From positions 1-59,775 of the IMG/VR virus record IMGVR_UViG_3300035670_000230: 59,775 nucleotides of DNA; one strand, given 5' to 3'. The notes below the pieces were generated by a model. That model was given only the letters and a program-made list of their open reading frames with translations. It made no database searches and was not told the origin of the DNA. Every line of letters starts with the position of its first letter. The stretch's first letter is position 1. Of this stretch, positions 21,440-56,395 are shown piece after piece. The translations under genes were made by a program, and so were the position numbers. This DNA comes from a virus (lineage: Duplodnaviria; Caudoviricetes).

Positions 21440-24400
21440 TTATGCAGTTATGCGTTCTACAAACCTACGACTACTGTCGGTAAATGGTACGCCCTCTGAT
21501 GTTTGCTCTTCACGCTTGCGTTGTTGTTCTGGAGCATTTGTCAATTCTGTCATAGGTTTACGTGGATAACCATTACGAACACGAGCCGCTTGAAGATCTA
21601 GCCATTGCCTACGCAGTTCAGCTTGTTTAGTCCTATCTTGGTCTTTAGTAGCTTCGGAATATTGACGCTTCAGGGTAGAAGAACGGCTACTAAACTTCTG
21701 TTCAAGGTCGATAGTACGGCCTTGCTGTTCACCACGAACGGATGTTTGTGTTGGGCTTAACCCTAAAGCCTGCCAGAAAGCCGTAACCTCACCAATTTGG
21801 TCGGGTTTTAGAAGAACATCACCACCACGATTAGTGAACCCCTCGCTGTATATGCGAACAGCTCGCATGGCGTCCCCAAGACCTTTTGGTAGCATTAACT
21901 CAAGACCTTTGTATTCGTCACCAGCGGCAATGTAGCTCATACCATCTGCCATCCGAGCCGCCATACCACCAGCAGGACCACCTAGGAGCGTACCAATAAT
22001 CTGGTAGGTCTTCTCACCATTGAGGTCTTTAATTTCTGTAAACGGCATTACGGACAGGGCGTTACCCATGCCAATTTTGCCTGAGAGGTTTACACCAGCT
22101 AGGTTGGGCGAACCATAAAGCACGATGTTGGATATGTCGTTGTTACCAATCGCATCACGAATCTGACCTTTAATATCAAATGGCTCGTCTTCATCTCCAA
22201 GCAAACCCTCAAGCGCCCAAGCAATAGCAGCAGCTCCCGGCATACCCATAACACCAGTAAGAACAGCAGTCTGAGCAAGGATATAACCTAGGGCCTTACG
22301 GGCAACTTGTTGTTCTGGGCCTTTTGTAAATGAGTTTTTAATCAACTTGGCAAGCAGACCCAACTGAATAAGCTGGAATTTACGGAACTGCAGGGCGACT
22401 TTACCAACGTTCGTATTGAACATACGTGGGGCGTTAAACGCCGAGTAGTCACCGTGGGTGTCGTTAATGATGCTGCTTGCGTAGTCGATGGCTACATCTC
22501 GATTGCCTGTTTTTGCAAGCTCAAGTCGATAGGCAGCAATGGCAGTTGTAAGTCGGTTGATGGCCTCAACTTTTTGTACAGCTAAACGCAAGCCCTTATC
22601 AACTTTGTTCCATGTATCAGTAACAGGACCTTGGCCTTCAATGGTAAATTCACCCATCTCTGTGGAAATGCCAATGTCAATCTGGCTGCGGTTAACCAGT
22701 GTTTCAATAACATCTTTAACATCATCAGGAACTTTAGAAAAATCAAATTGCTGGTCGAACAACTTGGCTGACTTCATTACATCTTTAAGATCGAAGTAGG
22801 CGTTGTAAAGGGCATTAGCAGATTTAGTGTAGTCGTGTCGTCCAGCCATTACAGGCAAGCTCATCATCCATGGCTGAGTAAAGTTCTGCAGGTAGTAACC
22901 CGGGCTTGACGCCAAAAAGTACACAGACGTAATACGGTTAAGTTTCTGAACTGCTTGGTTAGGTTCGTACTCCAGTGACTGGATGTAACGTCCGTTTAGC
23001 TCATTAAGAAGCTCTGACTTGCGGGTACGGTTACCACCTTGTTTGGCTTGCTTGCGCATCTTTTGCAGCGCTTCTTGTGTTCTGTTGTTGTATTGAACAG
23101 CGGCTAAGAAGTTAGCATCAGCTCGACCTTGGAGGGCAAACGATTGAAGCATGTCAATTTCACCGGGTACTGCTCGACGACGAAGCTCTGACTTTCTTGC
23201 ACTAGAATCAGCCAACGCATGGAGGTACATGTCTGTAATGATTCTACGAAGCTGGTTGGTACTTTTTTCATCCTGACCAGTTCTTTCCACCGTAGCCCGT
23301 AATTTACTTAGGGCAGCAAGCATGGTGTCTCCACCATATAGTTCGTCTTGGAACTTTTCACGCTCAAAGTAGTAAACGGCATCCTCATTAGTACCGTAGA
23401 AACCCTGATCTTGAAGCTGTTTCTGCAGGTTACGAGCCTGAATATCTGAGTCTACAAAGCTAACTTGGTAGTGGTTGGGGTCTTGCTCAAGCTCACGTAT
23501 ACGTTTTTTGTCGTCAGCAGTTTCTGCCGCACGGTACTCAGGCGATTTAGCCACCACAGCATATTTGCCTATACGCTTTAACGGAGCATAGGGTATACCC
23601 TCACGCAATTTAAACAACGTATCAAACTTTTTAAGATCAGCAATTTTTTCTTTTTGGAGTTGAGCAACTAGCTCGGCATTACCATCAGCTTGAGCGGCCT
23701 TAATCTGCGCATCGTATTCGCTGTTAGTGTAGTCAAGCAGAATCTTTTTCTTCATGGCAAGCGTATCGTCACCATGTTTGAACACAGCACGGATAAACGA
23801 CTGAGCCTCAGAAGATAAAGCGTCGAATCTGGTTTTTAGATCTGCGTCAACAGCTACGCCAGTGGTACGCCACTTAGGCGTAAAGCCCCACTTCTTGGTT
23901 CGTGTGGAGTCATAGATAAATGCGTTGACACTTTGGGATCCTGTACCACGATCTTTGTCTGGCACTAGGGCATACATGTCGGCGATGCGCTCAACTTCTT
24001 TTTCAAACTTACGGGTTTCAACCCCACGAGCCTGCATCAGTTGTTTAAATTCTGCAGCCGACCGGATACCAGATTCAACAGCACGGTTAATCAACGCCTC
24101 GGTAAATACCACACGATCAACACCCTTACGAGTCCAGTTACGGATTGTCTGGTAAATACTGTTAGAACTACTTCTGACCGTAGGCGGTATGTTATTTAAA
24201 ACATTAGCCGCAGCTCTTGCATTACGAGACCGAGCTACTGGGACGTTTTGTTGGGCTGCGGCGACGTCTCTTGCGATTGTCGTAAGGGCTTCTGCGACCT
24301 CTTTAGAAATTCCCCCCCTGCCCGCATCGACCCTCTCGGCTCTACTATCGAACGCTGGGCCTGTGAGGTTTGTGGCGTTGAAGTTTTCTGTTGTTTGGAC

Positions 24401-27400
24401 ATCTGCAAGTACCTCCTTCATAAATGCCACTGTAGCTGGCGCATTGTCGTTAAGAATTTGTTGTGTTTCAGCGGTAGCAGTAGTATACAAAGCCCATATC
24501 TGCGCAAACAACTCATGGCGAATTTGGTTTGAATCTAAACCTTTTCTTTCATTAGGGTCTAGTGGGTATGCAAAAATAACATTTGCGTCTTCGTTAATTC
24601 TGCGTAGCTTTGCAATTTCTACAGATACTGCCCCCATAGGGACAACTTTACCGTTTACAAGTTTAATATTTAACCTAGGGTCAGAAGAGTAAGTATCTTG
24701 ACCTTGTACAACTTGATCTACAGCGTGGCCTACTTCGTGAGCCATTGTCCATTTAGCAAAACCTCGATCAGCAGCAATATCTTGGCGCAAAACCACTGAC
24801 ACCTTTTGATCGATGTTGGTAATGATTCCATCCCAGTCTACATTCATGTTGTAGCTGACAAAGAACTGACCAACAGCATTAAACGCATTGCTGATCCCTA
24901 GTGAGTCATACGCACTACGAAGTTCAGCAATGCCTTCATAAACATCAGACATCTCATCAAGAGATGCGTCCTCAATAAACAAACTCTGATCGGTTCTAGT
25001 TAGCTCCTGAACCTGTTTCTCCGCACGACGCCGCATTGCGTTGACTTTTGGCTTGGCAACAGGAGTAGTAGGAGCAAACGGAGCTTCGGGCAGCACATAG
25101 ATGAAACCACCGTTGAACTCACCAAGCTGGGGTTTAATTTTATTTAAAAACAATTCGTGGCTAGTGTTGATGCAGCCATAGCTAATTCGATTGTCTTTAA
25201 CATCTGGCGAGGCTAAGCGCTCAAGGCGTCTATCATTTACGTTTCCAAGCCAAGCTGGATGCACTGCAATAATGCCTTTATTAAAACTGGTTTCGGCAAG
25301 ATCTAAACGATAGCCGCCTTCGTAGTCAGAATCTTCCACGACTTCCAAAGTAAATTTGCCTGCAGGGGTTATTTTTTTACCACCATTTAGCGAATCGCCC
25401 TGAAACGTATCTCCAATGTCTGCCCCAAAAAGCGCAGTGTCGGAAGCTAAATGTTGACCACTGGAGAAAAACATGTGGAGCTTGCCATTACGTTTGTCGG
25501 CAATCATAAACCCACGTTGTTTTTCTTTGGCTAATGGAGCGACTTGTCGGTAAATAATTTTTGCTTCTTCGCTCATTTGGTTAGCAACTTCAGTCGGAAC
25601 AGTAGCTTCTGTTTGTCTAGCTTGAATACTAGCGTAGGCTTCTTGCAGGTTAAAGTTAAACCCGTTACCAGTAATGTTGGGGTTAAATACGATTGCTGCT
25701 GCGATTGCAGCTTTAGCCAACTGCTGGATAACGCCACGAATCTTGGCGGCAACAAATTCTGCGCCTTCATTTATATAATTGGTAATGTCTTGGCTTAGTT
25801 TACTAAGGAATAGGTCAGTTCCTGCTTTATCGCCATAGTGGGACTCAAGCAACTTAGTCTGCGAGTTATTTAGTTTGGAAGTTTGCTCAAGCAGCAGTGT
25901 ACGCTGAGCCTCAGGAATAACAGTAGCTTCCACATCGATGGTACGGCTGTCATCTACGATGCGCTGTAGGTCCCGCATATTCATCTGCGCAGGATCAATT
26001 TCCACCAATGCAGCCCGTTGGGCGTCAGTTAACTTATCCCATGTGGGTAGTGCATCGTCAACTAACTGGCGAAGTTCGTTGTATTTAGTTTCAGCCGCTT
26101 CTTGTTTGGTAAGAACTACCGCAGCCTGCGTTGTCTGTGTAGACGGTGCCTTGGTTGTACCTGTAGTGGTTACTTGTGTTGATTTTCTGGCTTCTATAGC
26201 TCTAGGAGATCCAAAAATATTAAAAAGTAAATTTCCACTTTCTAAGTCGCCGGGGTAATGAACCATTAAGGTATCCCCGTCAACGGAACGTCTTTGCTTT
26301 AGGCTATGAGGCTCAGAGCTAGTTGTCCCTAGATCAAAGTCCATTTGAAAAACTTCATTATTTCTACCACGACCCATTAAAACTAAAGTGTGTCGTTTAA
26401 TTTCGCTATTAGGTAAGTCTCTAACTTCGTATTTAGCTTGTATTTCACCATCGGTAACGTTCTCAAGTGTTTTAAACTCAGAATTTTTCCTAATAGCAGT
26501 AAGTTGGCCTGAGCCTACCATTTGAAAATTTTGTGTTGAAAGTGGTTTAAATCGATTTAAGTATTCCTGTAAACGCCCAAACTGCTTATTTGGGTATCTA
26601 ACTAAACCTGAGTACGACACTCCAGCTTCTATGCGTTCACGAGATTGCGCATCTGGTTCAAACCCACGTTTTTCGTAAAACTTAACTAATTCTTCTTGGC
26701 TAAGTTTTTTACCGGACTGTGTATCAGCAGCAGCTACAACAGTTAAAGTAAGGTTATTTTTATCTGCCCAAGTTGTAATGCTGTTTAATAATTTTGAACC
26801 AGCACCCTGACCCGGATCTTTTGCAGTTAACAAGCCCAACTTCCACGTATTTGAATTTCGTGCTGGGTCGTTATGTAATTGTGCTCTAGCACCCTGTGCT
26901 TCAAATGAAAACGTATTGATTGTTGATTTAGGAAAATCAGGATCTTTTGGTCTAAGCGCAACAGCTACTCCCGGGACATCCGGTAGTACTACTTCTTCTT
27001 TTTGGGTTTGGGTTTCACCTTCTGCGGCAGGTTCTTTGGCGACCCGTACTTTTTGGCCCACTTTTTCGCCAACTCTGGCTTTTGGCTGAACAGATACTTT
27101 CTCTGTTTCTCGCTTTGGAACGGCACTTGGCTCTCCTTTAGCATCGAGGACTTCGGTTTCGATCAGACTATCAATTAATTTTTCGTCGGTATAAACACCT
27201 TGCTTCCCAAGATTAACAAAAGGAAGCCTTTCGCCATCCACTTTAATGTTAAACCCAGCAACTTGGTTTGGCTCTTCAATGCTACGAATAATAGTTAACG
27301 TAGCTGGCTGACCTTCAAAAGTTACTCGATGTTTTGTTTTGGTTTCCTTTACTTCTCGCTTTGGAACGGCATCGTCTCCCTCCTGTGTAGGCTCGCTAGT

Positions 27401-30400
27401 CCGTCTTCTAATATTAGCTTCAGATAATTTTTTAGCAGTCTCTATTCTATTTTCAAGCCTGTTGTTTAACTCAGTAACAATCTGATCTTTGAAAAATTGA
27501 TCGTCGTTAAGCTCTGCATCAATAGCCAAGGCAGATAGATGGTCTGGATTTTTGACTTGAGTTAGATCATTACCTGCATCTTCGTATGCTTTATTAGCGG
27601 CACTTAGTTGTTTTGAGGTTGGTTTGTTCCCAACTTCAATAGCATCAAGCGCTTCGATAACACGAGCATAGGCTTGATTGTTAGTTTCTACAGCGTTATT
27701 TTTTTCTTGTATGCTGTCCGAAGTACGACCCTTAGCTATGATAGAGGCGTCTTCTGCACCAAGCTCTCGTTCATCAATCCTTAGTTCTTGTACTTCTGCT
27801 TCAGTTATCTGCGCTTGATCTTGTTGGGTTCGCAAAGTTTCTATTAAATTATTCAAATACTCGGTGGACTGTTCATTTGAAAGTCTAAGTTCCACCATTG
27901 CAGCTTTGATACCATTTTCAAATTTTTGACGATCAGCCCCCATAAGAGCTTTAACTGTGCGATTCCAATCTTTTTTGATGGTATCTACGCTGCGATTAAA
28001 TCGTTTAGCTAATTGCTCTACTGTTTCATCTCGATTTTCTTGGGTAGTACCGTACATTTCAAGCACAAATTCCCGTTTGACTTTTTGTTTGTCAGCGGGG
28101 TACATACGGTTAATAGCAATTCGTAAAATTTCATCTGCAAGTTTGCTGTTGTTATCTAATGTCTGCTCGTTTGCAAGGGCAGTTACAACTTCTCGGTTAG
28201 CTGCATTAGCCTCTACAGCGTTAAACCATGCTTCTTGGAGGCTAGGGTCAAGGTCAGTAAACTTAATATTGATTTCAAATCGCTGGGCAATACCATCAAA
28301 TATCCTGCTGGCAACATCTACATCTTCTTCTGGTCTAGTGGCAGCAGGGCTAGTTCTGCCAGTTTGCGAAGCCCCTGTAGTTGGCGTTGAAGCGACTGCT
28401 CCTGTTGCTGGGGTTCCAGTTGTTGTAATCCCAGTCGTTCTACCCACCGCTGTTTGCGGGCCTTGTCCAGTTCTTGCTGTAGATTGAAGTCCACTTGGTG
28501 CTCCTGTTCGTTTAACTGCTGCAATAGCATCATCAACTTCTTCTGTGCGATTAAAAACAGCTTCAGTTTCTATAAATTGCGGTAGGGTTAACCCTAAGCG
28601 TCTAGCTACCTCTGCTCGTTGTTCATTTGGTAAAGCGTCATATTGAGCAAATACTTGTTCCGCATAATCCCTTTGTGCTGTTGGGGCAGGTTGTCCTGTC
28701 ATTAATCCTAAAGTACCAGCCGCAGGGGTGGTGGTTGGTGCTGCAGTTGTAGTTGGTGCTGCAGTTGTAGTTGGGCCTTCCGTCAATCGTTGGAAAGCTG
28801 GTGACATCTGACCAGTTAGAGCCTCGTAAATACGAGCCAATGGTTCTACAGACTTAGGTGATTTGGCCTGACCAATCTGGAACTCTAATATATTAGCGGC
28901 ATCGTTTAGGGTAGCTGCACCATCAAGCTGATACTTTTTAATGACACCATCGATACCACCAAGAATGCCCTTGGCTGAAGGCTGACCACTTAGGGGGATA
29001 CCCGAGGCTACGATTGCAGACTCAAGTTGTACACGCTCTGGGTCTTTGTTCTGGTTAGCTTGAGCAATTTCACTAACGATCTGGTTTACACGAGGCACAC
29101 CCATAACGGTCTTACCGGCGATGGTAAATGCTTGTGTGGGAACACCGGGACCGGGAGGAACTTGCCTTACACCATATGTTTGGGCTACTTGTTGTGCAAC
29201 TGCTGGGTCAATTTGTGGAGCCTGCGCTTGTGGCGGCTGAGCGCCCTGAGTTTGTTGCGCTGCGGGTTGTGCGGCACGGGCTGGTGCCGAGGGTACTCCA
29301 TACACATCACCAGCAGTTTGTGGGCGCTCGATGCCACCGGGGCCAGCAACCATTTGACCAGTCGGTTCATTAAGAGCAGCCTCCATGGATTGGCGGGTTG
29401 GTCGTTCGCCTTCTGGTCTTGTGACACCCGTAATCTGGTTAATAAGATCCTGTGTGGATAGACCAGCCCCCGGCTGGACGTTAATTCTTGAAGTATCTAT
29501 GCCTTGATTAAGCGCACCTTGGGCATCTTTGGTTAGGTCAAGCGGTTCTACGGAACGACGCCATCCACCGCCAAGGGTTCCAAAAGTTTTACCTAGGGCA
29601 AATCCACCAATGGCAGATTCTGTAAATCGCTCTCTGGCTTCAGGACTTAAAAACTCTTCTGACGGATCTACAGCCATACGACCCACTTGGCTAAGACCTT
29701 CTTGCCCTGTTTCAGAAAGAGATTCAGTAGCACCAACTCGTAAGCCAGTAACACCAGCTCTAGTTAGACCACCACGAAATCCTTTAAGTGCATCAAGCCC
29801 TTCGCCCATACTTCTAAAAGCACCAAGTCTGGCAGCAGCACCTTCAACACCTATGACATTAAGAGCGGCAAAAGGCACACCCAAAGCTGCAGCAGTTCCT
29901 AAATCGGCAGTGCCAGTTTGTTCCCGTTGTGCTTGTAGTATTTCGCCAACAGAAGATGGGTAGCTAGTAACGGCAGCACCGGTTAAAGGCGCTCTTGCAC
30001 CACCTAACAATGCACTACCACCTAACAATGCACGACCAGCTAAGCCACCAACTGCAGCTTCGGCAATATAAGGAGAACTTCCAATGGCTAAACCACCAAT
30101 ATAACTTGGCACGTCGCCAATACCACGAATGTCTTTATAGCTTTCGATACCGCCTAGTTCTCTAGCAGCTCTGGATGCTACGGCAGCTTCAAATTCGTTA
30201 GCTCGTCTACGTTCTGCAAGTGATTCTTGAGCACCTGTAAAGCCTAAACCACCAGTTGCGGCTTCGCCAAGACCATAAAAACCAGCCTGATAGCGATCAA
30301 GAGCAGCACCAAAACGCTGTCCAGTTACACCAGATTCGCTAGGCTTATATCCAAGAGTGTTAGCAATCTCAACAGGATCGGCCTGAACAAAGTCAGCATA

Positions 30401-30484
30401 TGCAGAAATTAAGTCTTCGTCGGTTTTGTCTTGCCACTGACCACCGGCTTGCCTACGAAGATCTTGGATGGTGCGAATTGGCAT
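21440..30484 (-). CDS. 3014-aa polyvalent internal virion/ejection protein
   Basis: Last large gene of the ejection cluster; contains a sigma-region-4-like HTH, GNAT, L,D-transpeptidase-like, HExxH and PLxRFG-like (YAPLKRIGKY) segments. Confidence 0.85.
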   Translation of the reverse strand: MPIRTIQDLRRQAGGQWQDKTDEDLISAYADFVQADPVEIANTLGYKPSESGVTGQRFGAALDRYQAGFYGLGEAATGGLGFTGAQESLAERRRANEFEAAVASRAARELGGIESYKDIRGIGDVPSYIGGLAIGSSPYIAEAAVGGLAGRALLGGSALLGGARAPLTGAAVTSYPSSVGEILQAQREQTGTADLGTAAALGVPFAALNVIGVEGAAARLGAFRSMGEGLDALKGFRGGLTRAGVTGLRVGATESLSETGQEGLSQVGRMAVDPSEEFLSPEARERFTESAIGGFALGKTFGTLGGGWRRSVEPLDLTKDAQGALNQGIDTSRINVQPGAGLSTQDLINQITGVTRPEGERPTRQSMEAALNEPTGQMVAGPGGIERPQTAGDVYGVPSAPARAAQPAAQQTQGAQPPQAQAPQIDPAVAQQVAQTYGVRQVPPGPGVPTQAFTIAGKTVMGVPRVNQIVSEIAQANQNKDPERVQLESAIVASGIPLSGQPSAKGILGGIDGVIKKYQLDGAATLNDAANILEFQIGQAKSPKSVEPLARIYEALTGQMSPAFQRLTEGPTTTAAPTTTAAPTTTPAAGTLGLMTGQPAPTAQRDYAEQVFAQYDALPNEQRAEVARRLGLTLPQFIETEAVFNRTEEVDDAIAAVKRTGAPSGLQSTARTGQGPQTAVGRTTGITTTGTPATGAVASTPTTGASQTGRTSPAATRPEEDVDVASRIFDGIAQRFEINIKFTDLDPSLQEAWFNAVEANAANREVVTALANEQTLDNNSKLADEILRIAINRMYPADKQKVKREFVLEMYGTTQENRDETVEQLAKRFNRSVDTIKKDWNRTVKALMGADRQKFENGIKAAMVELRLSNEQSTEYLNNLIETLRTQQDQAQITEAEVQELRIDERELGAEDASIIAKGRTSDSIQEKNNAVETNNQAYARVIEALDAIEVGNKPTSKQLSAANKAYEDAGNDLTQVKNPDHLSALAIDAELNDDQFFKDQIVTELNNRLENRIETAKKLSEANIRRRTSEPTQEGDDAVPKREVKETKTKHRVTFEGQPATLTIIRSIEEPNQVAGFNIKVDGERLPFVNLGKQGVYTDEKLIDSLIETEVLDAKGEPSAVPKRETEKVSVQPKARVGEKVGQKVRVAKEPAAEGETQTQKEEVVLPDVPGVAVALRPKDPDFPKSTINTFSFEAQGARAQLHNDPARNSNTWKLGLLTAKDPGQGAGSKLLNSITTWADKNNLTLTVVAAADTQSGKKLSQEELVKFYEKRGFEPDAQSRERIEAGVSYSGLVRYPNKQFGRLQEYLNRFKPLSTQNFQMVGSGQLTAIRKNSEFKTLENVTDGEIQAKYEVRDLPNSEIKRHTLVLMGRGRNNEVFQMDFDLGTTSSEPHSLKQRRSVDGDTLMVHYPGDLESGNLLFNIFGSPRAIEARKSTQVTTTGTTKAPSTQTTQAAVVLTKQEAAETKYNELRQLVDDALPTWDKLTDAQRAALVEIDPAQMNMRDLQRIVDDSRTIDVEATVIPEAQRTLLLEQTSKLNNSQTKLLESHYGDKAGTDLFLSKLSQDITNYINEGAEFVAAKIRGVIQQLAKAAIAAAIVFNPNITGNGFNFNLQEAYASIQARQTEATVPTEVANQMSEEAKIIYRQVAPLAKEKQRGFMIADKRNGKLHMFFSSGQHLASDTALFGADIGDTFQGDSLNGGKKITPAGKFTLEVVEDSDYEGGYRLDLAETSFNKGIIAVHPAWLGNVNDRRLERLASPDVKDNRISYGCINTSHELFLNKIKPQLGEFNGGFIYVLPEAPFAPTTPVAKPKVNAMRRRAEKQVQELTRTDQSLFIEDASLDEMSDVYEGIAELRSAYDSLGISNAFNAVGQFFVSYNMNVDWDGIITNIDQKVSVVLRQDIAADRGFAKWTMAHEVGHAVDQVVQGQDTYSSDPRLNIKLVNGKVVPMGAVSVEIAKLRRINEDANVIFAYPLDPNERKGLDSNQIRHELFAQIWALYTTATAETQQILNDNAPATVAFMKEVLADVQTTENFNATNLTGPAFDSRAERVDAGRGGISKEVAEALTTIARDVAAAQQNVPVARSRNARAAANVLNNIPPTVRSSSNSIYQTIRNWTRKGVDRVVFTEALINRAVESGIRSAAEFKQLMQARGVETRKFEKEVERIADMYALVPDKDRGTGSQSVNAFIYDSTRTKKWGFTPKWRTTGVAVDADLKTRFDALSSEAQSFIRAVFKHGDDTLAMKKKILLDYTNSEYDAQIKAAQADGNAELVAQLQKEKIADLKKFDTLFKLREGIPYAPLKRIGKYAVVAKSPEYRAAETADDKKRIRELEQDPNHYQVSFVDSDIQARNLQKQLQDQGFYGTNEDAVYYFEREKFQDELYGGDTMLAALSKLRATVERTGQDEKSTNQLRRIITDMYLHALADSSARKSELRRRAVPGEIDMLQSFALQGRADANFLAAVQYNNRTQEALQKMRKQAKQGGNRTRKSELLNELNGRYIQSLEYEPNQAVQKLNRITSVYFLASSPGYYLQNFTQPWMMSLPVMAGRHDYTKSANALYNAYFDLKDVMKSAKLFDQQFDFSKVPDDVKDVIETLVNRSQIDIGISTEMGEFTIEGQGPVTDTWNKVDKGLRLAVQKVEAINRLTTAIAAYRLELAKTGNRDVAIDYASSIINDTHGDYSAFNAPRMFNTNVGKVALQFRKFQLIQLGLLAKLIKNSFTKGPEQQVARKALGYILAQTAVLTGVMGMPGAAAIAWALEGLLGDEDEPFDIKGQIRDAIGNNDISNIVLYGSPNLAGVNLSGKIGMGNALSVMPFTEIKDLNGEKTYQIIGTLLGGPAGGMAARMADGMSYIAAGDEYKGLELMLPKGLGDAMRAVRIYSEGFTNRGGDVLLKPDQIGEVTAFWQALGLSPTQTSVRGEQQGRTIDLEQKFSSRSSTLKRQYSEATKDQDRTKQAELRRQWLDLQAARVRNGYPRKPMTELTNAPEQQRKREEQTSEGVPFTDSSRRFVERITA
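24235..24402 (-). CDS. Nested +1-frame ORF, 55 aa (MSKQQKTSTPQ...)
   Basis: AAGGAGGT 8 nt before ATG, inside a linker of the giant gene. Confidence 0.5.
   Translation of the reverse strand: MSKQQKTSTPQTSQAQRSIVEPRGSMRAGGEFLKRSQKPLRQSQETSPQPNKTSQ
26989..27126 (-). CDS. Nested +1-frame gene, 45 aa MPFQSEKQRKYLFSQKPELAKKWAKKYGSPKNLPQKVKPKPKKKK
   Basis: TAAAGGAGAG RBS plus GTG; the sequence resembles a standalone small phage protein family. Confidence 0.8.
   Translation of the reverse strand: MPFQSEKQRKYLFSQKPELAKKWAKKYGSPKNLPQKVKPKPKKKK
27107..27371. repeat. 19-bp direct repeat TTCTCGCTTTGGAACGGCA, 246 bp apart
   Basis: Copies at 27107-27125 and 27353-27371. Confidence 0.9.
28318..28494 (-). 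CDS. Nested +1-frame ORF, 58 aa (MDFNLQQELDKARKQRWVERLG...)
   Basis: CAGGAG-CACCAA-GTG; same GGAGnnCCAAGTG context as the 27126 start; amphipathic helical product. Confidence 0.6.
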   Translation of the reverse strand: MDFNLQQELDKARKQRWVERLGLQQLEPQQQEQSLQRQLQGLRKLAELALLPLDQKKM

Positions 30485-33426: not shown

Positions 33427-35172
33427 CTACCCACACAAGTAGATACAAGCAATTTGTTTAACTTCTGTAGGGCTAGAAAAAGTGACGTTTTCCCGAGCTT
33501 TCGCCACCGTGATGGACCGCACAAGATCATCAGACTGCTTCATTCCTTTGCCTGCAATAGATGAGGTAACAATCAGGTCACCAATCTCTATGTCCCCACC
33601 CTCACCACAGATGTTGATTTTGCCCTCGCCAATAGCGTTGACAACCAAGGGTCGATAAGTGTCAAAAACATTCTCAAATTCTGGTTTAAGAACAAATTCT
33701 TTTTGAGCTGCAGGACCAATATCAACGTATTCGCCCAATGACGTTGGGACAAATCCAGTCCCCAATTGACCAGCATAAATCCCAATGACACCTTTTTGAT
33801 TTGCTGACGAGCTGACTTTCACTTCGGTGATGGAGTCATTGACATTGGGAGCCGCAACCAACGCAACGTCAACTAGAATGTCGCCTATCTCAGGGAGCGT
33901 TTCTGTGAGCTTTTGCAGTCCGTCGTGCGCCGCAGTAAATGGGCCACCAACACCGCCGGTAATGTAATAAGCATAGCCAGAGGTCCATGTTGGTTCCGCA
34001 TAGCCCAAATAGATACCCGCAATGTTAGATGCCGTTGCGCCAACATTAACAGTATTGAAGCCCCAATAACCAGACGACATTGCCGAGTAAACTGTCCAAC
34101 TGTTATACGAACTGTTTGAATTACCAATGGCAAAAATCGCACCATTTGACCCATTGCTGTTTGTTGTGCCCGCACCAAAAGCTGAACCGCCAGCACTATT
34201 ACCAACAATCGCCCCGAAGTAGCTTGCATTCGTACTCATGAACTGAGCACCAGCATTGATGCCGCCGACGGTCGTTGATGTTCCGAGGCCAAAGGTCGTG
34301 TTGTTTACGGTCTTAGTTGTATTGGATTCAATGCGGTCAGCAGAAAGTGTGTTCGTGGTGATCTTTCCACCATCAATGACTGTCACTCCCGAATCAAAAT
34401 CTGATTGAATATTACTAAAAGTGACTAGCCCATCAAAATTCTGCCACCGAAAAACAGACCCAATACTTACAGTTTGTGTCCCATCAAAAGTAGATTCGTT
34501 TACTGTGTAACGTACCGCCCAATAAGTATTTTCACCAGCCGTTGTTGGAGCTGTAAATGTTGGTGACCAGTTAGAAGTTAAAGAGCTAAATGTATGCGTA
34601 GAAAAACTATACCCACTAGCAGATGGAGCGCTTGGTGCAGACCCACTAGATAACGCATAGTATAAATATCCGTTTGCTGTACGAGGTGTGCCATCAGAAT
34701 TAGCACCAGTTTGACCTAAAGTTCCAGACGAGGAATTAAAATCACCAAACGTACCTGCGATATTTACAAAACGAATCCAGTAGTAAAATGTAGCTGCTTC
34801 GCCAGTGCTATGATAAAAACTTCCACCCGGAGTTTGACCTACAATAGCTGCTGTAGCTAAATCATTTGTTATAGAAGCCCATACTTCAGCATAAGAATGC
34901 CCGTAATATGTAGGGATACTCCAAGAAATCGTTATATTAGCTAAGCCACCTGAAGTAGTTACATCTAGTGGTATTGATGGAGGGCCAATTTTTGTAGTTG
35001 TAGAAGTTATAGAACCGCCGGGAGCAGGTAGTGCAATACCAGCCGTTGTAAGATCTTTAACTGATACAAGCCTTTCTGATCCTTGACTTGTTAATAATTC
35101 ACGAACTCGGTCTAAAAAAGCACGAAGATCTTTTGGTATGTCTGAAGAAATAAATGGTAGCTTTTTAGACAT
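33427..35172 (-). CDS. Tail fibre/spike with C-terminal peptidase G2-like autocleavage domain
   Basis: Fn3-like N-terminal part ('YYWIRFVN'); 'FTAAHD...VNAIGEG.I..CGEGGDIE.GDLIVTSS..GKGMKQ'. Confidence 0.7.
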   Translation of the reverse strand: MSKKLPFISSDIPKDLRAFLDRVRELLTSQGSERLVSVKDLTTAGIALPAPGGSITSTTTKIGPPSIPLDVTTSGGLANITISWSIPTYYGHSYAEVWASITNDLATAAIVGQTPGGSFYHSTGEAATFYYWIRFVNIAGTFGDFNSSSGTLGQTGANSDGTPRTANGYLYYALSSGSAPSAPSASGYSFSTHTFSSLTSNWSPTFTAPTTAGENTYWAVRYTVNESTFDGTQTVSIGSVFRWQNFDGLVTFSNIQSDFDSGVTVIDGGKITTNTLSADRIESNTTKTVNNTTFGLGTSTTVGGINAGAQFMSTNASYFGAIVGNSAGGSAFGAGTTNSNGSNGAIFAIGNSNSSYNSWTVYSAMSSGYWGFNTVNVGATASNIAGIYLGYAEPTWTSGYAYYITGGVGGPFTAAHDGLQKLTETLPEIGDILVDVALVAAPNVNDSITEVKVSSSANQKGVIGIYAGQLGTGFVPTSLGEYVDIGPAAQKEFVLKPEFENVFDTYRPLVVNAIGEGKINICGEGGDIEIGDLIVTSSIAGKGMKQSDDLVRSITVAKARENVTFSSPTEVKQIACIYLCG

Positions 35173-37720
35173 TGCCTAATTCGCTTACAGATTGTGCTAA
35201 GTCGATTGAAAAAACTTCTCTGGTGCCTTCAATTTGAATCTCCCAGTCACGGGCTACTACAGCAGGCAATCTAAATGGGTTCCTATTAGCAACTGTTTGT
35301 GTGTGAATCAAAGTACCATCTGCATAAAATTTAGCTGTAAACGAATAACTTTCGGCTTCAACCTGCGCACAATTAAAAGACATCGGGTAAGCTAGAGAGA
35401 ATTTTTTAGACTTCCATGTGTAGCTCAAAGCAGAACCAGCGTTCCATATTTTTAAGGCCTTGTTGCTAAAAGCCAAAAACAATTTGTCGCTTTGGATGTC
35501 TGTGTATCCAGCAGTAGCGTAGATGTTGTGCGTTACAAACTGTCCAGATTTAAAGTCATAGATAAAACCACCTTGTGTGGTGCCGGTATCATAAAAACCA
35601 ACATACTTAAGATCAGTCTGATAAGCATGAATTGATTCCGGTCTAAAGTCTTGCCACTGTACACGGTCATATATGGTGTCAGTTAAAATTTTAGAGCCAC
35701 CGGGTTGCAGTGCTATGAGGCCATCGGGACTAGCATAAACAACAACGCCATTAAAACTAACGATACTTTGTTTAGAGACACATGCCTGTTCTATATCCGA
35801 CCTAACAACTACCATTGATTCAGGGTCAGTGCCTTGTATAAAGTATGGAGTACCTGTGGTTAGAACAACTAAGGTCGTATCAATTTTTCCAAGACCTACA
35901 ATAAAATAATCTACAGTCTGGATGTATTGTTGGGGCCATGCATGGGGCCGATAAGGGACTGAAAAATAAATATCTCTACCAACAAATCCCGCCATCAAAC
36001 CGTTGGGTAAATTTGTAAGTCCTTGTAAATTTGCAGGTGGAGGCGTCCAAGTAAGAGAAGGCAGTTCTTCCGATAAATCTTCTGGCAAACTGTCATCAGC
36101 ATACTTACTGTCAATAATTGGTATTTCATCGACAAACAAATAGATGCCGTTTACTGCTCTATATATCCTACGATGAGTAACTGTATACCCAGTTGGCGGG
36201 GCTAAAAAATTGCTAAGGTTTACGATTTGTTCAAACCGCACATCGATAGACTCTGAGGCTGGGGCTGGTGCAGATTCAAAATCATACCCACCTACTTTGT
36301 TAACCCAAGTGTAAGTGTAAACCCTAGTATCTAATAGTTCTGACCCATCTGCGCCACCTGCGTCTGACAAAATAACAACATCATCAACAGACGGGAATGA
36401 ACCAGCACGTATTCGTAAAGTTGAAGTTGCATCGCCCGGAGGAGCAGAAATTAAAGCAACTGGGTTTTCATTACCATAAATAACTACTGTTAAATTAAAG
36501 TCTCGCAGCGCAACCAGATCGGCAACTTTGGCATTAGCGCCAAGATACAAAAACCGTTCAACGCCAGCGTTGTATATGCCGGTGTAGTAGATCGAAATAA
36601 TTGAGTTAGCAACAACATCGACAGCCGCTTGATCGACAATAAAATAAGCAGCTCGTGCGCTTGGAGAATACTCACTACGGAATTCAGAAAGTAACGCTGA
36701 AGATCTATAATGCTTATATAAAATGTGATTGGTTGTTGCGGCAGTCCCGGGTTCAAATAATAAATTAGATCCATAAGCAGTAACATCAACAGAACCAGAT
36801 AAGATTCCATTAAAGTATGTAGCCCAGTCTGATGCGGTTGAATATACAGTAGAAATAGTTTCGTTTAGGTGTATCCCATCCCCGGACGAAATAGCAATAA
36901 CATCACCAACTTGTATAGATCGCCATTCAATATCTGGTATCGGGAGGAATGGGGGTGATGTAGAAGTACTTGTTGCCTGTATATCTAATGTGCCTGTGTC
37001 ATAAACAAACGCATCAGTCTGGTCTTCAATCGTTCCTACTTTGTATGCAATATGTAATGTTGCAGAACTCCCTGTGGCAACAGTTGATACTTTGACTTTA
37101 TCATCGACAACAACCGCATTAAGAGTAACAATTGCATTTAGCGCTGCAGCAACTGCAGAAGCCGTAGTTGAGGCCAATGGAACATTTAGATAAGTTTGTC
37201 CATTGTCTAAGCTGTAATTGACCCCGTAAGCAGTTTGAAGTTGAGATAAATGAACTGAAGTAAGATAAACAATTGCTGGAATAGTTTCTGGGTCGAATAC
37301 ATCTGCTGATACCGTTAACGGATCTAGTGGTGCAGGTAACCCAAGTGGTATAGAAGAAGCAGGATAATTAGCGCTAGAAAGCGCAATCGTATTGTAAGTT
37401 GCTTTTGGCGCACCATCACCAGTATAGAAAGTCCATTCGGAATCATCACCATGGATTTGGCTACGGCATACATCTACCGAAAAAGGCCAATGAAACCAAT
37501 AATTAGTGTCTGATTTAGCATCCTGACCAAAACGATAAATTGATCTAGGCACCCCATCTTTTGGTAGGGTAAGCAAAGAAGAACCAACATTAGCAATTGG
37601 GGCTAGCGACCCATTAAACGGACCAGCATTTAGCGAAGTCTGTGCCTGCCCATTTTGTAAATACCGAGCTGGCGTTTTAGGTGAAATACCACCAAAAGAT
37701 TTTATGCTGATGACTGCCAT
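35165..37720 (-). CDS. Tail nozzle/stabilisation protein
   Basis: 'I.SFGGISPK', 'RVYTYTWV', 'FS.PYRPHAWP', 'YASPDGL', 'WKSKKF'; carries a central insertion. Confidence 0.75.
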   Translation of the reverse strand: MAVISIKSFGGISPKTPARYLQNGQAQTSLNAGPFNGSLAPIANVGSSLLTLPKDGVPRSIYRFGQDAKSDTNYWFHWPFSVDVCRSQIHGDDSEWTFYTGDGAPKATYNTIALSSANYPASSIPLGLPAPLDPLTVSADVFDPETIPAIVYLTSVHLSQLQTAYGVNYSLDNGQTYLNVPLASTTASAVAAALNAIVTLNAVVVDDKVKVSTVATGSSATLHIAYKVGTIEDQTDAFVYDTGTLDIQATSTSTSPPFLPIPDIEWRSIQVGDVIAISSGDGIHLNETISTVYSTASDWATYFNGILSGSVDVTAYGSNLLFEPGTAATTNHILYKHYRSSALLSEFRSEYSPSARAAYFIVDQAAVDVVANSIISIYYTGIYNAGVERFLYLGANAKVADLVALRDFNLTVVIYGNENPVALISAPPGDATSTLRIRAGSFPSVDDVVILSDAGGADGSELLDTRVYTYTWVNKVGGYDFESAPAPASESIDVRFEQIVNLSNFLAPPTGYTVTHRRIYRAVNGIYLFVDEIPIIDSKYADDSLPEDLSEELPSLTWTPPPANLQGLTNLPNGLMAGFVGRDIYFSVPYRPHAWPQQYIQTVDYFIVGLGKIDTTLVVLTTGTPYFIQGTDPESMVVVRSDIEQACVSKQSIVSFNGVVVYASPDGLIALQPGGSKILTDTIYDRVQWQDFRPESIHAYQTDLKYVGFYDTGTTQGGFIYDFKSGQFVTHNIYATAGYTDIQSDKLFLAFSNKALKIWNAGSALSYTWKSKKFSLAYPMSFNCAQVEAESYSFTAKFYADGTLIHTQTVANRNPFRLPAVVARDWEIQIEGTREVFSIDLAQSVSELGNV

Positions 37721-51927: not shown

Positions 51928-52929
51928 TTAGGTTGAAGAACCAACCTGAGTAACCACAAGAGCCTCAGGCTTCAGGGTCTTACGACCGTAGATAGCAAGG
52001 CCACGAACGATGTCACCGAAGTCCGTCTGGTTACGCAAAGGCTCAGTCTTGTTGACAGTCATAGCAAAGCCAACAGCGTCTTTGGTACCAGCGATCATGG
52101 TGCGACGAACCTTAGCATTACTAACAGCACCGCCAGTAGAAGGATCGGTTAGGCCAGATACAAGAGCTTTACCAGCAGCACCACGAGGCAGGAGGTTCGA
52201 CACATAGACCGTGAAGCGGTCGAGCATACCAATCTTACCAGTACGAATCGTGCTTGCTTGGTCGCCAGTGAAGTAGGCTTGAGCAATGTTGGATTGCATC
52301 AAGAGGTGGCGGTCGAAAGGAGTTATGATAAGCCAACGACCATCTTCGGGAACATTCTGCTCATCAAGAACAGACGACATACGAAGGATGGCTTGAAGGA
52401 CGTTAGCAGGTGTGCTCTGATCGACAGGAGTTGTATCCGTACCGAGGTTATAAGCAGCAGAGATAGCACCAGCAGTAGCGCCTTCGTTGGCAGCAGCAGG
52501 ACCCTCAGTCACGAAGGAATTGAAGAACACCTCATCTTCCATCTTGATTTTGAGCTGCTTGGCAGCGTCCTCAGTAAACATGTTCATCAGGTCCATGTCG
52601 GACTGATAACCAAGAACGTCGCTCACCTGAACGCCGAAGTACAAGCCCTTGTTGATCTGCATGTCGGTGAAGATCGGGGTGGGCACTTCGTAGCTAAGGT
52701 TGTTGCCAACTTCGTACTCAGAAATATTGATAGTAGGAGCGGTACGAATACGGACCGTATCGCCTTGGTTCTTCAGCTCACCTTCCCAAGTCGTATTGCA
52801 GACCTCGGAAAGCATGGTGTTCTGGTAGAACTTGGCATTGAGCTTGCCAGACCAGAGGGTAGGAATAAAGCTACCGGAGTAGCTAGGATTGGTATTAAAC
52901 GGTGCATTGACCGGGTAAACAGCAGCCAT
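51928..52929 (-). CDS. Major capsid protein
   Basis: 'FIPTLWSGKL', 'GE.KNQGDTVRIRT.P', 'LDEQNVPEDGRW', 'FGDIVRGL.IYG.K...PEAL'; AAGGAGG RBS. Confidence 0.9.
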   Translation of the reverse strand: MAAVYPVNAPFNTNPSYSGSFIPTLWSGKLNAKFYQNTMLSEVCNTTWEGELKNQGDTVRIRTAPTINISEYEVGNNLSYEVPTPIFTDMQINKGLYFGVQVSDVLGYQSDMDLMNMFTEDAAKQLKIKMEDEVFFNSFVTEGPAAANEGATAGAISAAYNLGTDTTPVDQSTPANVLQAILRMSSVLDEQNVPEDGRWLIITPFDRHLLMQSNIAQAYFTGDQASTIRTGKIGMLDRFTVYVSNLLPRGAAGKALVSGLTDPSTGGAVSNAKVRRTMIAGTKDAVGFAMTVNKTEPLRNQTDFGDIVRGLAIYGRKTLKPEALVVTQVGSST

Positions 52930-53959: not shown

Positions 53960-54047
53960 GTGTACATCTCCTTAAAGCACCGACTCAATCCTACAGCGCC
54001 ATAGTATGCTGCAAAACTGCTTACGGTGTGCTTCTAAAGTACGACTC

Positions 54048-54284
54048 CTACCGGAGCCGCTCCAAAATTGAAGGCGCTTCTTTCACCGCCTCCAAAAAAT
54101 CCTGTAATGCTTCGGCTCTACCTTGCAAACGGTGGAGTTTCACCATATCGTCTGCAACCACTAGCGCCGCTTTTGTTTCATCGAGCTTAGCTCTAAAAAC
54201 TGTTAAGAGGTCTTCCGATCCCCGGCACTTTAAAAGCGCCGTTATGTGTTGCCGATCTGGACGACTACTTAAAAATAAATTCAT
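54048..54284 (-). CDS. Small head-module protein
   Basis: 'LQGRAEAL..FL'; lies between portal and scaffold. Confidence 0.7.
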   Translation of the reverse strand: MNLFLSSRPDRQHITALLKCRGSEDLLTVFRAKLDETKAALVVADDMVKLHRLQGRAEALQDFLEAVKEAPSILERLR

Positions 54285-54316
54285 ATTGACATGTTAATCA
54301 TACAACAAATCTATTG

Positions 54317-56395
54317 TCAAGTCCTAGGCGACATAAAATTCATATCACGACCGCCTGCGGGCGACCCATCAGGCAAAATGTTTATGCCTTCAATTTTTGA
54401 TGGTGTACCTTGACCACCGGGTTGTGGGGGCTGTTGTCCTGTCAGAGCCATGAGCTGCTGTTGTAATTGCGCAATAACTTGCTGTTGCTGCTGAATGGTG
54501 CTGATCTGCTGACGGTCGGGCACAATCCGATCTACATTACCCTTTAAGTTTTTAGCCGCATCACGTAAAAGCTCTGCTGCCCCATCCATACCCACAATCT
54601 GCTGCGCTAGCGGGCTATTAAGAACCAGACCCAAGAACTCGTTACGCCGTACAGCATCAGCTTCTTTAACTACCAAGTTTGACGCACCTTTAGCTACGAT
54701 CTCCACATCACCCACCATGTCGGGGTCAGGGCTGTAGCGCAGGTTGTCTTGATAGAGCCGCTCTAAGAGGGGGACCATTACGTGCTGGTCAATGTTACTT
54801 ATAACCTGTTTGATGCCTTTACTGGCATTATTAATAAGCATCGCTAAACCAGACGATGTACGACCTGCTCCACCTGTAGATTCTCCAGTCATATAACGAG
54901 GAATCATTGTGTCTTCATCAGCTCGGGTAGAAAATTTTTCAAATACCGCCATTAATTCACTAGCGTTGCTCGACGGCTGAAAAAAAGTTACAGGTGGTGC
55001 TGAGTCTGCATAATCAGGCGACTGAAACTGCCAAATCTTCCATGGATACATCTGCGTAATATCTTCCCCAGCAGGTAACCGAGATATATTTACCCCGACC
55101 TGAGGTCCTGAGGAGATGCCCATGTTATTAGCCAGTGAACGAGCCGCAGCATTAACCATCGCCTGAGAATCCCGGCAGAGGTCTGCCACACCATTACCAT
55201 CCAATGCACCGGGGACTTTCTCAAAAGACGTTAAATAATACGGTTTACGCCCAATCGGATCGTAGTTGACCACTGCCCGGATAACCGTGCTACCAATTAT
55301 CCACAACTCACACGGGTAGGTTTTAGTCGCCTCAAGCGTATCCTTAAAGCTACTGTCCCAGTCAATCAACATACTGCCGGGGAGGGTGTCCCAAAGTTGC
55401 AGTGCATCAATAAGGTCGTTTGTATCAAGTGCCTCAGTCGTATCTTTGCCTTCAGCTTCGGCTTGAGCAGTGTCTGTCCACAGCCACTCTTTCAGGCTAC
55501 CTCGCTCAAAGTCCTGCAGCACCGTATCGATCGACTCGGTGGAATAACCCTCTACACCTTTTAGGGATTCCAGATCCATCCGTGTCATTTTGTGACGCTC
55601 GATCACAAACCCATCCTGAATGTCTGAAGCCCACGCTGCCCAATAAAGATTGAACGGATCAACCCGCTCCCACTCGTTACGTATTTCTTCAACAGGCACA
55701 AGCTCATTGCCTTGCCACACCAATTTAGTCCGACGACGCTTAACCGGCCCCTTAACACACGCAAAAGGAAACGTCACGATGTCATCTAAAAACTCATTGA
55801 ACGCCTTGAGCCAACCACCTTCAACAAGCTGGTCTTCCATCCGAGTTTCCATCCGAGCTACCCGAGCATCTGCATCTTCTTTAATTTGACGCAGTGCAGC
55901 ATCTTTCATTTCCGCTGCTAAGGCTCGTAGTGTCTCTTCGTCAGGCTGTTGCCCTTGAGCGTAGACCTGCATAAGCTGCGCAGCCATCTGCGCTTTAAGA
56001 CTATCAATTTTCTGTGGGGGAAGCTCTGGGAGGGGAGTTGTGTGCAACCCCCAAGGTTTGTCAGCACCTGTGCCAAGTAACGCATCCCGCAGCCAGCTTG
56101 TAGCTGCCCGACATTTAACGGAGGTAAGCTGGATAAAAATCTCCGAACCACCATCTCGCTGAATTTCTGAAAGTTTCTCTGGGTCGTACTTGCCTTGGCG
56201 CTGGCGCAGGCACTCAAGCATTCGCTCTTCTAGTTCACGTTTAGCATCTTTGGCAGACTCCCAACGGATTTTGGTATGCGCCGCTAAACCACGAATCATG
56301 GGCTGGGCATTCTGCCTCTCGCTCTCACGACGAGACATGGCTTCCATATCAGAAGAACGAGCAACAGGTACTAGGGCAAGACCTTCCATAAACAT
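54317..56395 (-). CDS. Portal protein
   Basis: 692 aa after terL; 'KCRAA.SW..D', 'DQLVEG.W', 'GAGRTSSGL.ML', Q-rich tail. Confidence 0.85.
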   Translation of the reverse strand: MFMEGLALVPVARSSDMEAMSRRESERQNAQPMIRGLAAHTKIRWESAKDAKRELEERMLECLRQRQGKYDPEKLSEIQRDGGSEIFIQLTSVKCRAATSWLRDALLGTGADKPWGLHTTPLPELPPQKIDSLKAQMAAQLMQVYAQGQQPDEETLRALAAEMKDAALRQIKEDADARVARMETRMEDQLVEGGWLKAFNEFLDDIVTFPFACVKGPVKRRRTKLVWQGNELVPVEEIRNEWERVDPFNLYWAAWASDIQDGFVIERHKMTRMDLESLKGVEGYSTESIDTVLQDFERGSLKEWLWTDTAQAEAEGKDTTEALDTNDLIDALQLWDTLPGSMLIDWDSSFKDTLEATKTYPCELWIIGSTVIRAVVNYDPIGRKPYYLTSFEKVPGALDGNGVADLCRDSQAMVNAAARSLANNMGISSGPQVGVNISRLPAGEDITQMYPWKIWQFQSPDYADSAPPVTFFQPSSNASELMAVFEKFSTRADEDTMIPRYMTGESTGGAGRTSSGLAMLINNASKGIKQVISNIDQHVMVPLLERLYQDNLRYSPDPDMVGDVEIVAKGASNLVVKEADAVRRNEFLGLVLNSPLAQQIVGMDGAAELLRDAAKNLKGNVDRIVPDRQQISTIQQQQQVIAQLQQQLMALTGQQPPQPGGQGTPSKIEGINILPDGSPAGGRDMNFMSPRT

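Follow-up and report, generated by a model that had tools for sequence, protein, structure and literature searches.

A 45-codon gene on the minus strand (27126..26989) of the virus record IMGVR_UViG_3300035670_000230 is, in our analysis, most probably a genuine coding gene that lies within a gene for a giant virion protein, in the +1 frame, and we put the probability of this reading at about 0.82. The window, i.e. the whole stretch of DNA analysed, is a complete, metagenome-derived virus record, 59,775 bases long and carrying direct terminal repeats. The small gene encodes a member of a very large and unnamed phage protein family, called here the MPF-S-Q family, whose members are found free-standing, as the N-terminal part of longer proteins, or embedded in the +1 frame of larger genes. 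The reading is carried by homology to this family, the embedding itself, conserved initiation signals, selection on the nested frame and a host frame that stays open.

Translation of 27126..26989, with the GTG start at 27126 read as Met, gives VPFQSEKQRKYLFSQKPELAKKWAKKYGSPKNLPQKVKPKPKKKK followed by a TAG stop (26991-26989), which reproduces exactly the peptide of 45 amino acids (aa) that a first-pass annotation of the sequence had reported. The frame lies one base downstream (+1) of that of the 3014-aa open reading frame (ORF) at 21440..30484 on the same strand. It is wholly inside this ORF, its start falling at host aa 1122 when counted in the stop-to-stop frame, and so has the layout of an embedded gene. 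One full copy of the nested gene is present in the whole window genome.

The MPF-S-Q family

We aligned 26 members of the family into one alignment and profile (A2), which defines this unnamed family of small basic phage proteins. Residues P2, F3, S5, Q8, P17 and A20 are invariant in A2, and the window peptide has all eight invariant or near-invariant residues, i.e. these six together with W23 and Y27. The conserved unit is the extreme N-terminal ~28 residues, MPF.S..Q..Y/F/W(L/M)...P..A..W...Y, and is usually followed by a Lys/Arg-rich tail. The window peptide matches the 29-column N-terminal profile of the family at positions 1-29 with E = 6e-18 and 64.3 bits, computed among six-frame pieces of 25 sources; its homology is therefore not a matter of chance, and the first-pass annotation was right to doubt that a random shadow frame had produced the peptide. 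It is 76% identical to the family member P0003, which we leave out of the free-standing copies.

A search of 1.84 billion proteins with A2 found 3952 cluster representatives at E<=1e-3, 1590 of them at E<=1e-10. The domain begins at residue 1 in 144 of the 150 best representatives, which are 45-958 aa long and include 53 proteins of at least 200 aa. Using tblastn against 50,697 phage records, we found matches in 12 records, every one of them starting from query residue 1, and a second family member used as the query returned the same 12. Each of the five records that we opened (C75C1, P-RSP2, 023Pt_psg01, S-CBS2 and Vorvolakos) carries an ORF of 34-72 aa starting with MPF or MPY, and no long ORF in another frame spans the small gene in any of them. 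Two of these free-standing copies are annotated, both as hypothetical proteins: URG13095.1 (39 aa) of phage 023Pt_psg01 and gp48 of Streptomyces phage Vorvolakos. Those in C75C1, P-RSP2 and S-CBS2 are unannotated. The MPF motif that the first-pass annotation had named is hence real, and the comparison of standalone with nested homologues that it had proposed finds both kinds.

An AlphaFold model computed with A2 has helices at residues 6-15 and 17-27 and an extended Lys-rich tail, with a mean predicted local distance difference test (pLDDT) score of 79.8; the MPF-S-Q unit is predicted to be a two-helix hairpin with a basic tail. The searches for a known family gave little. Pfam has no family for the window peptide and none for the 26 family members; a profile search of PDB sequences gave a single match at chance level (E = 1.4); and Foldseek against BFVD found only uncharacterised small phage proteins, none at E<=0.001. 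A word-based search of a protein collection of 5.8 billion clusters did not return the window peptide. Querying the ESM Atlas with the homologue P0006 gave 'hypothetical protein' clusters and one weak lead, a neighbour cluster (score 0.80) with DUF3008 in 15% of its members. We rejected DUF3008 (PF11450) as the identity of the family, as 0 of the 26 members match it at E<=10. phrog_1375 is the sole library family with any match, at E = 0.032 for the window peptide and E = 0.005 over residues 3-25 for two fused relatives; this likeness is too weak for assigning the window peptide, and that PHROG carries no function. A full-text literature search, with subscription journals and supplements outside its scope, found neither the family nor the embedded arrangement described.

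Start codon and initiation signal

The ORF listing for the window gives the nested frame as 26989..27144 (51 aa) from an upstream ATG. We consider GTG 27126 to be the better start, because it is aligned with residue 1 of every family member, because the Shine-Dalgarno (SD)-like sequence AAGGAG (27133..27138, minus strand) sits 6 nucleotides (nt) upstream of it, and because two relatives use GTG at the same codon. The anti-SD duplex energy at this site is -8.7. The gene starts of the window have a median of -6.5 (41 starts), and out-of-frame ATG or GTG codons inside the giant gene one of -2.05 (200 sites), 2% of the latter matching the strength of the nested site. GGAG lies 5-7 nt upstream of the nested start in all 19 genes compared (the window and 18 relatives introduced below), over host residues that vary (KGE, EGE, LEK, LGE or QEE). 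The start codon at family residue 1 is ATG in 16 of these genes and GTG in three. A promoter and terminator scan of 26700-27800 found no more signals than in shuffled sequence.

An open frame alone means little here, since the giant gene has eight same-strand alternative-frame ORFs of at least 40 aa, the nested gene included. The best PHROG match of the other seven (40-80 aa, 24235-29427, minus strand) is no better than E = 0.19. The first-pass annotation had spoken of a nested-gene system; the nested gene itself stands, and the wider system gains nothing from these seven ORFs.

Relatives of the giant gene

We collected 24 loci from IMG/VR through residues 1816-2500 of the giant protein (aligned with L007, which is the same contig as L089), a region that begins ~650 codons downstream of the end of the small gene. 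Sets ascertained through the motif favour intact copies, and the two sets ascertained through the host, these 24 loci and the 80 described below, do not share this bias. Scanning the 24 loci in six frames with the profile, we found the gene intact in 18 of them, always in the +1 frame within the giant ORF (E between 1.3e-11 and 2.7e-17); it starts with ATG in 16 of them and with GTG in two. Five of the 18 have a stop closing the +1 frame three codons before the ATG, and ribosomes would thus have little room to enter by frameshifting.

The same scan found no nested gene at the locus in the remaining six relatives. We searched whole five of the records behind these six loci, two of these five being complete genomes, and found no copy at E<=1. 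The giant protein of one of them (L092) aligns across the site with an Ala/Pro-rich linker, and its +1 frame holds no remnant. Within the clade of the window the nested gene is hence either embedded and intact or cleanly absent, and no free-standing copy was seen there (nested in 18, absent in 6).

Selection on the two frames

The variation among relatives follows the nested frame. Over codons 2-28 in the clade of the window, the diversity at nested positions 1/2/3 is 0.227/0.135/0.317; it is 0.208/0.174/0.309 and 0.101/0.070/0.278 in two other host-ascertained groups, and 0.276/0.206/0.588 in free-standing genes. The minimum at nested position 2 falls on host position 3, which is the opposite of what selection on the host alone would give. 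The mean pairwise identity in the clade of the window is 0.68 for the nested frame and 0.61 for the host reading. The nested gene is also an island of DNA identity, with 0.76 against 0.54 in the upstream and 0.60 in the downstream flank of 240 bases; a coarse single-linkage clustering of these flanks did not resolve any mosaicism.

The host frame, for its part, is kept open. Over the first 28 codons, stops interrupt the host register in nearly all free-standing sequences (22 of 23) and N-terminal fusions (14 of 15) but in no embedded one (0/21 and 0/27), so that its openness there cannot be put down to the composition of the small gene. This count left out duplicates (L016, L047, L070, L082, L025, L081 and L018), L019, L033 (with its host cut by a contig end), L037 (with an ORF running off its contig) and the second copy in L066. 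The host-frame reading of the shared bases (26989..27129, minus strand, ~aa 1119-1165) is rich in Lys, Glu, Val and Gln and variable among relatives, and we read it as an interdomain linker.

Natural strains point the same way. Near-identical DNA occurs in the sequencing runs of several studies, and we compared contigs of four runs with the window over 26700-27500. Single differences fall at seven places within the nested gene. All four in codons 19-24 are at nested third positions and synonymous in the nested frame, and change the host residues (G>S, E>K, K>E and Q>K); the remaining three fall in the variable codon 29. In the flanks, synonymous changes at host third positions are common. The RNA runs X18-X20 contain 0.06-0.17 of the sampled words. 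Taken together, these sequence comparisons indicate purifying selection patterned on the nested frame with the host frame kept open.

Three layouts and a second kind of host

A pattern scan of IMG/VR gave at least 600 matches, at least 414 of them confirmed, and we examined the best 80 loci. The small gene is embedded in a same-strand ORF of at least 200 aa in 36 of them, forms the N-terminus of a protein of at least 100 aa in 16, and is a small ORF in the rest. It is +1 to the host ORF in 36/36 embedded cases. Their hosts are four giant ORFs (1327 to >3121 aa) and 32 ORFs of ~240-430 aa, some of these cut by contig ends, with the small gene at about host residues 45-120 in the 32 shorter ones. 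In blastp comparisons with the giant protein of the window, L007 is strongly and L072 weakly similar, and the ~400-aa hosts, L050 and L078 show no similarity.

The ~400-aa hosts occupy the scaffold position; that of L079, for example, sits between the portal and virion structural genes. Through the conserved host body downstream of the overlap we obtained 80 loci out of at least 590 relatives. With the narrow profile, 44 of the 80 show an embedded gene in the +1 frame; a start-motif rule (MPF then K/Q, ORF of at least 30 aa) found it in 66, and the two together in 68. Eleven of the other 12 lack an embedded gene and one is cut by a contig end. Neither PHROGs nor Pfam has a match for the ~400-aa host proteins; their relatives in the Flavobacterium elemo phages are annotated as 'structural protein'. 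No nested gene was seen in the loci we opened from the cultured relatives of this host, i.e. the Flavobacterium elemo phages and ctfjg026.

The divergent +1 genes missed by the narrow profile lie in the 5' part of the gene after the portal gene and start with MPFKH or MPFKSKAQM (L118, L128, L142-L148, L151, L155, L156, L160, L162, L163, L166, L169, L170, L174, L175, L180-L182, L186 and L192). Their proposed homology to the main family is drawn from start motif, position and frame. The 17-member MPFKH form varies strongly and only at third positions (0.101/0.070/0.278 at nested positions 1/2/3), and its nested protein has an identity of 0.88 against 0.66 for the host reading. The first-pass annotation had itself named the outcomes that would speak against a nested gene: no standalone homologues, or a conserved frame-0 peptide together with a +1 frame gathering stops. 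We found standalone homologues (URG13095.1 and Vorvolakos gp48, for example), a host reading that is the less conserved one in the clade of the window and in one other clade, and a +1 frame that is intact or simply absent in the clade of the window.

The gene order in L009 is portal, free-standing small gene, scaffolding protein and major head protein. The small gene starts 2 bases past the end of a 1976-aa ORF in L027 (5999-6183) and overlaps the 3' end of a 1886-aa ORF by 17 bases in L042 (6001-6189); neither of these giant ORFs is similar to the giant protein of the window by blastp. The long fusion proteins starting with the MPF-S-Q unit are of low complexity. A Pfam search of nine of them found only DUF6321, in three.

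Several further observations concern these layouts. The three DUF6321 proteins (P0045, P0080 and P0119, 601-958 aa, E about 1e-20) have Cys-rich stretches, and P0004 and P0005 have a second, internal match to the profile. In L032 (5880-7044) a 14-nt gap relative to L052 brings the small frame into register with the scaffold-position protein, after which the leader frame ends at a stop; this layout, seen in one contig, is either a natural fusion or a contig error, and we do not build on it.

Alternative explanations

The best-surviving alternative, which we nonetheless consider improbable, is that the gene is a dead relic, captured once and now serving only as a linker of the giant protein, its old frame still being open for reasons of composition and recent ancestry. 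In purine-rich sequence, several frames can easily be open at once, as the eight alternative ORFs illustrate; six of the 24 relatives do without the gene, and a decayed copy (L187) is found in another clade. The start codon and the gene are, however, intact in all 18 relatives that carry it, and these are not near-clones, given their mean identity of 0.68. GGAG is kept in 19/19 over differing host residues, variation is lowest at host third positions, and none of the four strain differences in codons 19-24 alters the nested protein. Moreover, the site in relatives lacking the gene shows outright replacement rather than decay.

The DNA itself could instead be what is conserved, as a patch of homology that mediates recombination at a domain junction, the protein reading being secondary. 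We think this very improbable as a replacement for the embedded gene, though several features of the locus agree with it. The identity island is one, and relative to L087 the window has insertions flanking the shared stretch on both sides. Many contigs match within the nested gene only and then diverge (share 0.31-0.54). The locus also has an exact direct repeat of 19 nt on the minus strand, whose downstream copy (27107..27125) is bases 2-20 of the nested gene and whose upstream copy (27353..27371) lies 246 bases away; there are 2 matches against 0.01 expected, extending to 28 nt at 86% with the same spacing of 246. The upstream copy belongs to a mini-ORF of seven codons, MPFQSEK and a stop (27349..27372, minus strand, ATG at 27372), which copies the 5' end of the nested gene (E = 0.33 against the family profile, positions 1-7) and has AGGAGG (27379..27384, minus strand) 6 nt upstream of its ATG.

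Between the repeats lies a 246-nt (82-codon) cassette (27107..27352, minus strand) that is present or absent among natural strains. In contigs of runs X9 and X17, position 27106 is followed directly by 27353, and 19 letters at the junction fit either side; the cassette is retained in contigs of X6 and in other contigs of X9 and X17. When it is removed, the host frame stays open and the nested protein is the same, with its start now the ATG at 27372 behind AGGAGG. The 82-aa peptide of the cassette has no relative in the fetched loci. Against conservation at the DNA level stand the codon pattern of the substitutions in the nested frame and the existence of the family as ordinary free-standing genes and N-terminal domains; the constraint of two frames alone predicts the identity island. 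A recombining patch is better taken as an added consequence of the embedded gene than as a replacement for it.

Even less probable in our view is programmed +1 frameshifting, by which a truncated giant protein, its N-terminal ~1119 aa, would end in the two-helix domain. In its favour, the two frames are neighbours on one strand, phage structural genes commonly yield frameshift products, and large proteins elsewhere carry the domain, albeit at the N-terminus. A frameshift domain would need no start codon, yet one sits exactly at family residue 1 in 19/19, with GGAG at initiation spacing. The five relatives with an upstream stop leave only 9 non-conserved bases for a shift site, and the domain is the extreme N-terminus in 144 of the 150 best representatives. 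An assembly or sequencing error that joined by indels two genes flanking the small gene, as might be suspected of a metagenome-derived record and of L032 with its layout-changing 14-nt gap, is scarcely credible when the host frame is continuous in 18 independent contigs and in contigs of four independent runs, and open in 21/21 nested sequences.

Some observations weigh against the embedded gene as we interpret it. The gene is missing from six of the 24 relatives, and the two complete genomes without any copy indicate that it is dispensable there. The copy in L187, one of the eleven scaffold-position loci counted above as lacking the gene, is decayed: it lacks a start codon and runs into a stop after 13 codons, the sole pseudogene-like case. 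In the clade of the window, the conservation of the nested frame exceeds that of the host reading only modestly (0.68 vs 0.61), and nested position 1 is the most variable position in 10 of the 27 codons. The strain differences come from low-depth contigs of at least 85% likeness, which may belong to related phages. The motif-ascertained counts are biased towards intact copies. Finally, what we propose below on function is suggested by gene order and by fusion partners carrying DUF6321 only.

Genome setting of the giant gene

The host gene (21440..30484, minus strand), whose frame 0 runs through the nested gene, is the last of the late operon and encodes a giant virion protein of 3014 aa. Its C-terminal ~800 aa match phrog_10089 'DarB-like antirestriction' (E = 9.7e-55), where 'DarB-like' is the label of the PHROG library, as well as phrog_11358 (8.2e-46) and phrog_30335 (9.3e-41). 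The late operon, all on the minus strand, begins with the large terminase (56443-57849), followed by the portal (54317-56395), a 322-aa protein in the scaffold position between the portal and the major head protein, and the major head protein itself (51928-52929). After the tail and fibre genes come the internal virion protein (35165-37720) and then the 3014-aa ORF, whose neighbours are the internal virion protein and tail fibres. A profile scan found no family copy in the gap between the portal and the scaffold-position gene (53960-54316, 357 bases); the same gap is the site of free-standing family copies in other phages. blastn of window positions 26000-28500 against phage records gave no match.

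The window has ~280 residues more than L087 directly downstream of the nested gene (aa 1169-1447), a weak GNAT match included. Below the Pfam threshold, the giant protein shows a GNAT acetyltransferase row (E = 0.013, aa 1225-1291) and a PF07737 row (E = 0.026) around an HEVGH motif (aa 1916-2024), and there is an 'ISYGCINTS' stretch near aa 1760. These features would fit a multi-enzyme polyvalent virion protein.

Proposed expression, origin and function

We propose that the late mRNA of the giant gene has an internal initiation site, formed by the SD sequence and GTG of the nested gene, at which ribosomes start to make the 45-aa protein. Ribosomes already translating the giant gene would read the shared bases as a linker between domains. 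The small gene is probably the older reading of these bases and that of the giant gene the derived one, because the small gene occurs widely where nothing overlaps it, and the host reading varies and can be replaced. We infer from the older and more widespread frame that the gene was independent first and engulfed later. The first-pass annotation had suggested such an engulfment, and the free-standing homologues, the intact +1 frame and the less conserved host reading all support it.

The small protein might act in head assembly or inside the virion, a role that we offer tentatively and hold at somewhat less than even odds, because the genes sit by the portal and scaffold genes, in scaffold-position or giant virion genes, and at the N-termini of long low-complexity proteins. 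A specific role as an anchor is doubtful; in such a role the protein may tie itself or a fused cargo to the portal, the scaffold, the capsid interior or, via its basic tail, the packaged DNA. We also speculate, with as little confidence, that the MPF-S-Q unit could be an address tag for the capsid interior in three interchangeable layouts, the embedded copy serving at the same time as a recombination joint. The tag would be free, fused to its cargo, or embedded in the +1 frame of cargo or scaffold genes. The constraint on two frames would let the embedded copy join domain cassettes of giant proteins that are swapped between co-infecting phages, and the 246-nt cassette polymorphism would be one such swap in progress.

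What stands out is that one family of small proteins sits, each time in the +1 register, inside structural genes of at least two kinds without detectable mutual similarity, and that it is present in 18 of 24 giant virion gene loci and 68 of 80 scaffold-position loci when these are ascertained through the host. Embedded genes get dropped by gene callers, and in many uncultured aquatic phages the family is likely to be a component of head assembly or the virion interior that is still missing from the picture. It also provides a clean setting in nature for asking how an older short gene comes to be read through by a long one. The giant 'polyvalent' ORFs of phages should be treated with caution, as they can conceal further genes.

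Comparison with known systems

Short N-terminal modules that target proteins to phage heads are known, e.g. the SPP1 gp7 / MuF domain of polyvalent proteins and the capsid-targeting sequence of T4, and the P22 scaffolding protein has a helix-turn-helix coat-binding domain. The MPF-S-Q unit resembles them as a short terminal unit with variable cargo in a portal/scaffold or giant-virion setting, a likeness that we draw as an analogy of function only.

In its layout the nested gene recalls the Rz1-like outer spanins (o-spanins). We considered that identity and rejected it: the peptide has no Cys and no lipobox or hydrophobic signal, and its gene is not in a lysis cassette, the host being a virion gene at the end of the structural operon. 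Rz/Rz1 spanin genes occur in embedded, overlapped, separated and unimolecular layouts, and it has been proposed for spanins that a neighbouring gene may extend across the small one (PMC6139136). As with Rz/Rz1, a small gene lies wholly inside a larger same-strand gene in the +1 frame, gene callers skip the embedded member, and several layouts exist among relatives, here free-standing, embedded, fused, and adjoining or overlapping the 3' end of a giant ORF (L027 and L042). Unlike Rz/Rz1, the hosts here are virion or assembly genes instead of lysis genes, they are of at least two kinds without detectable mutual similarity, and the embedded member is probably the older and is the better conserved reading.

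The arrangement is also similar to overprinted viral genes (PMC8227390), in that one DNA encodes two proteins, one constrained and the other of biased composition and probably disordered. Classical overprinting creates a new short frame within an old gene. Here the order would be reversed: the short frame appears to be the old one, and the stretch of the long gene that reads through it the new.

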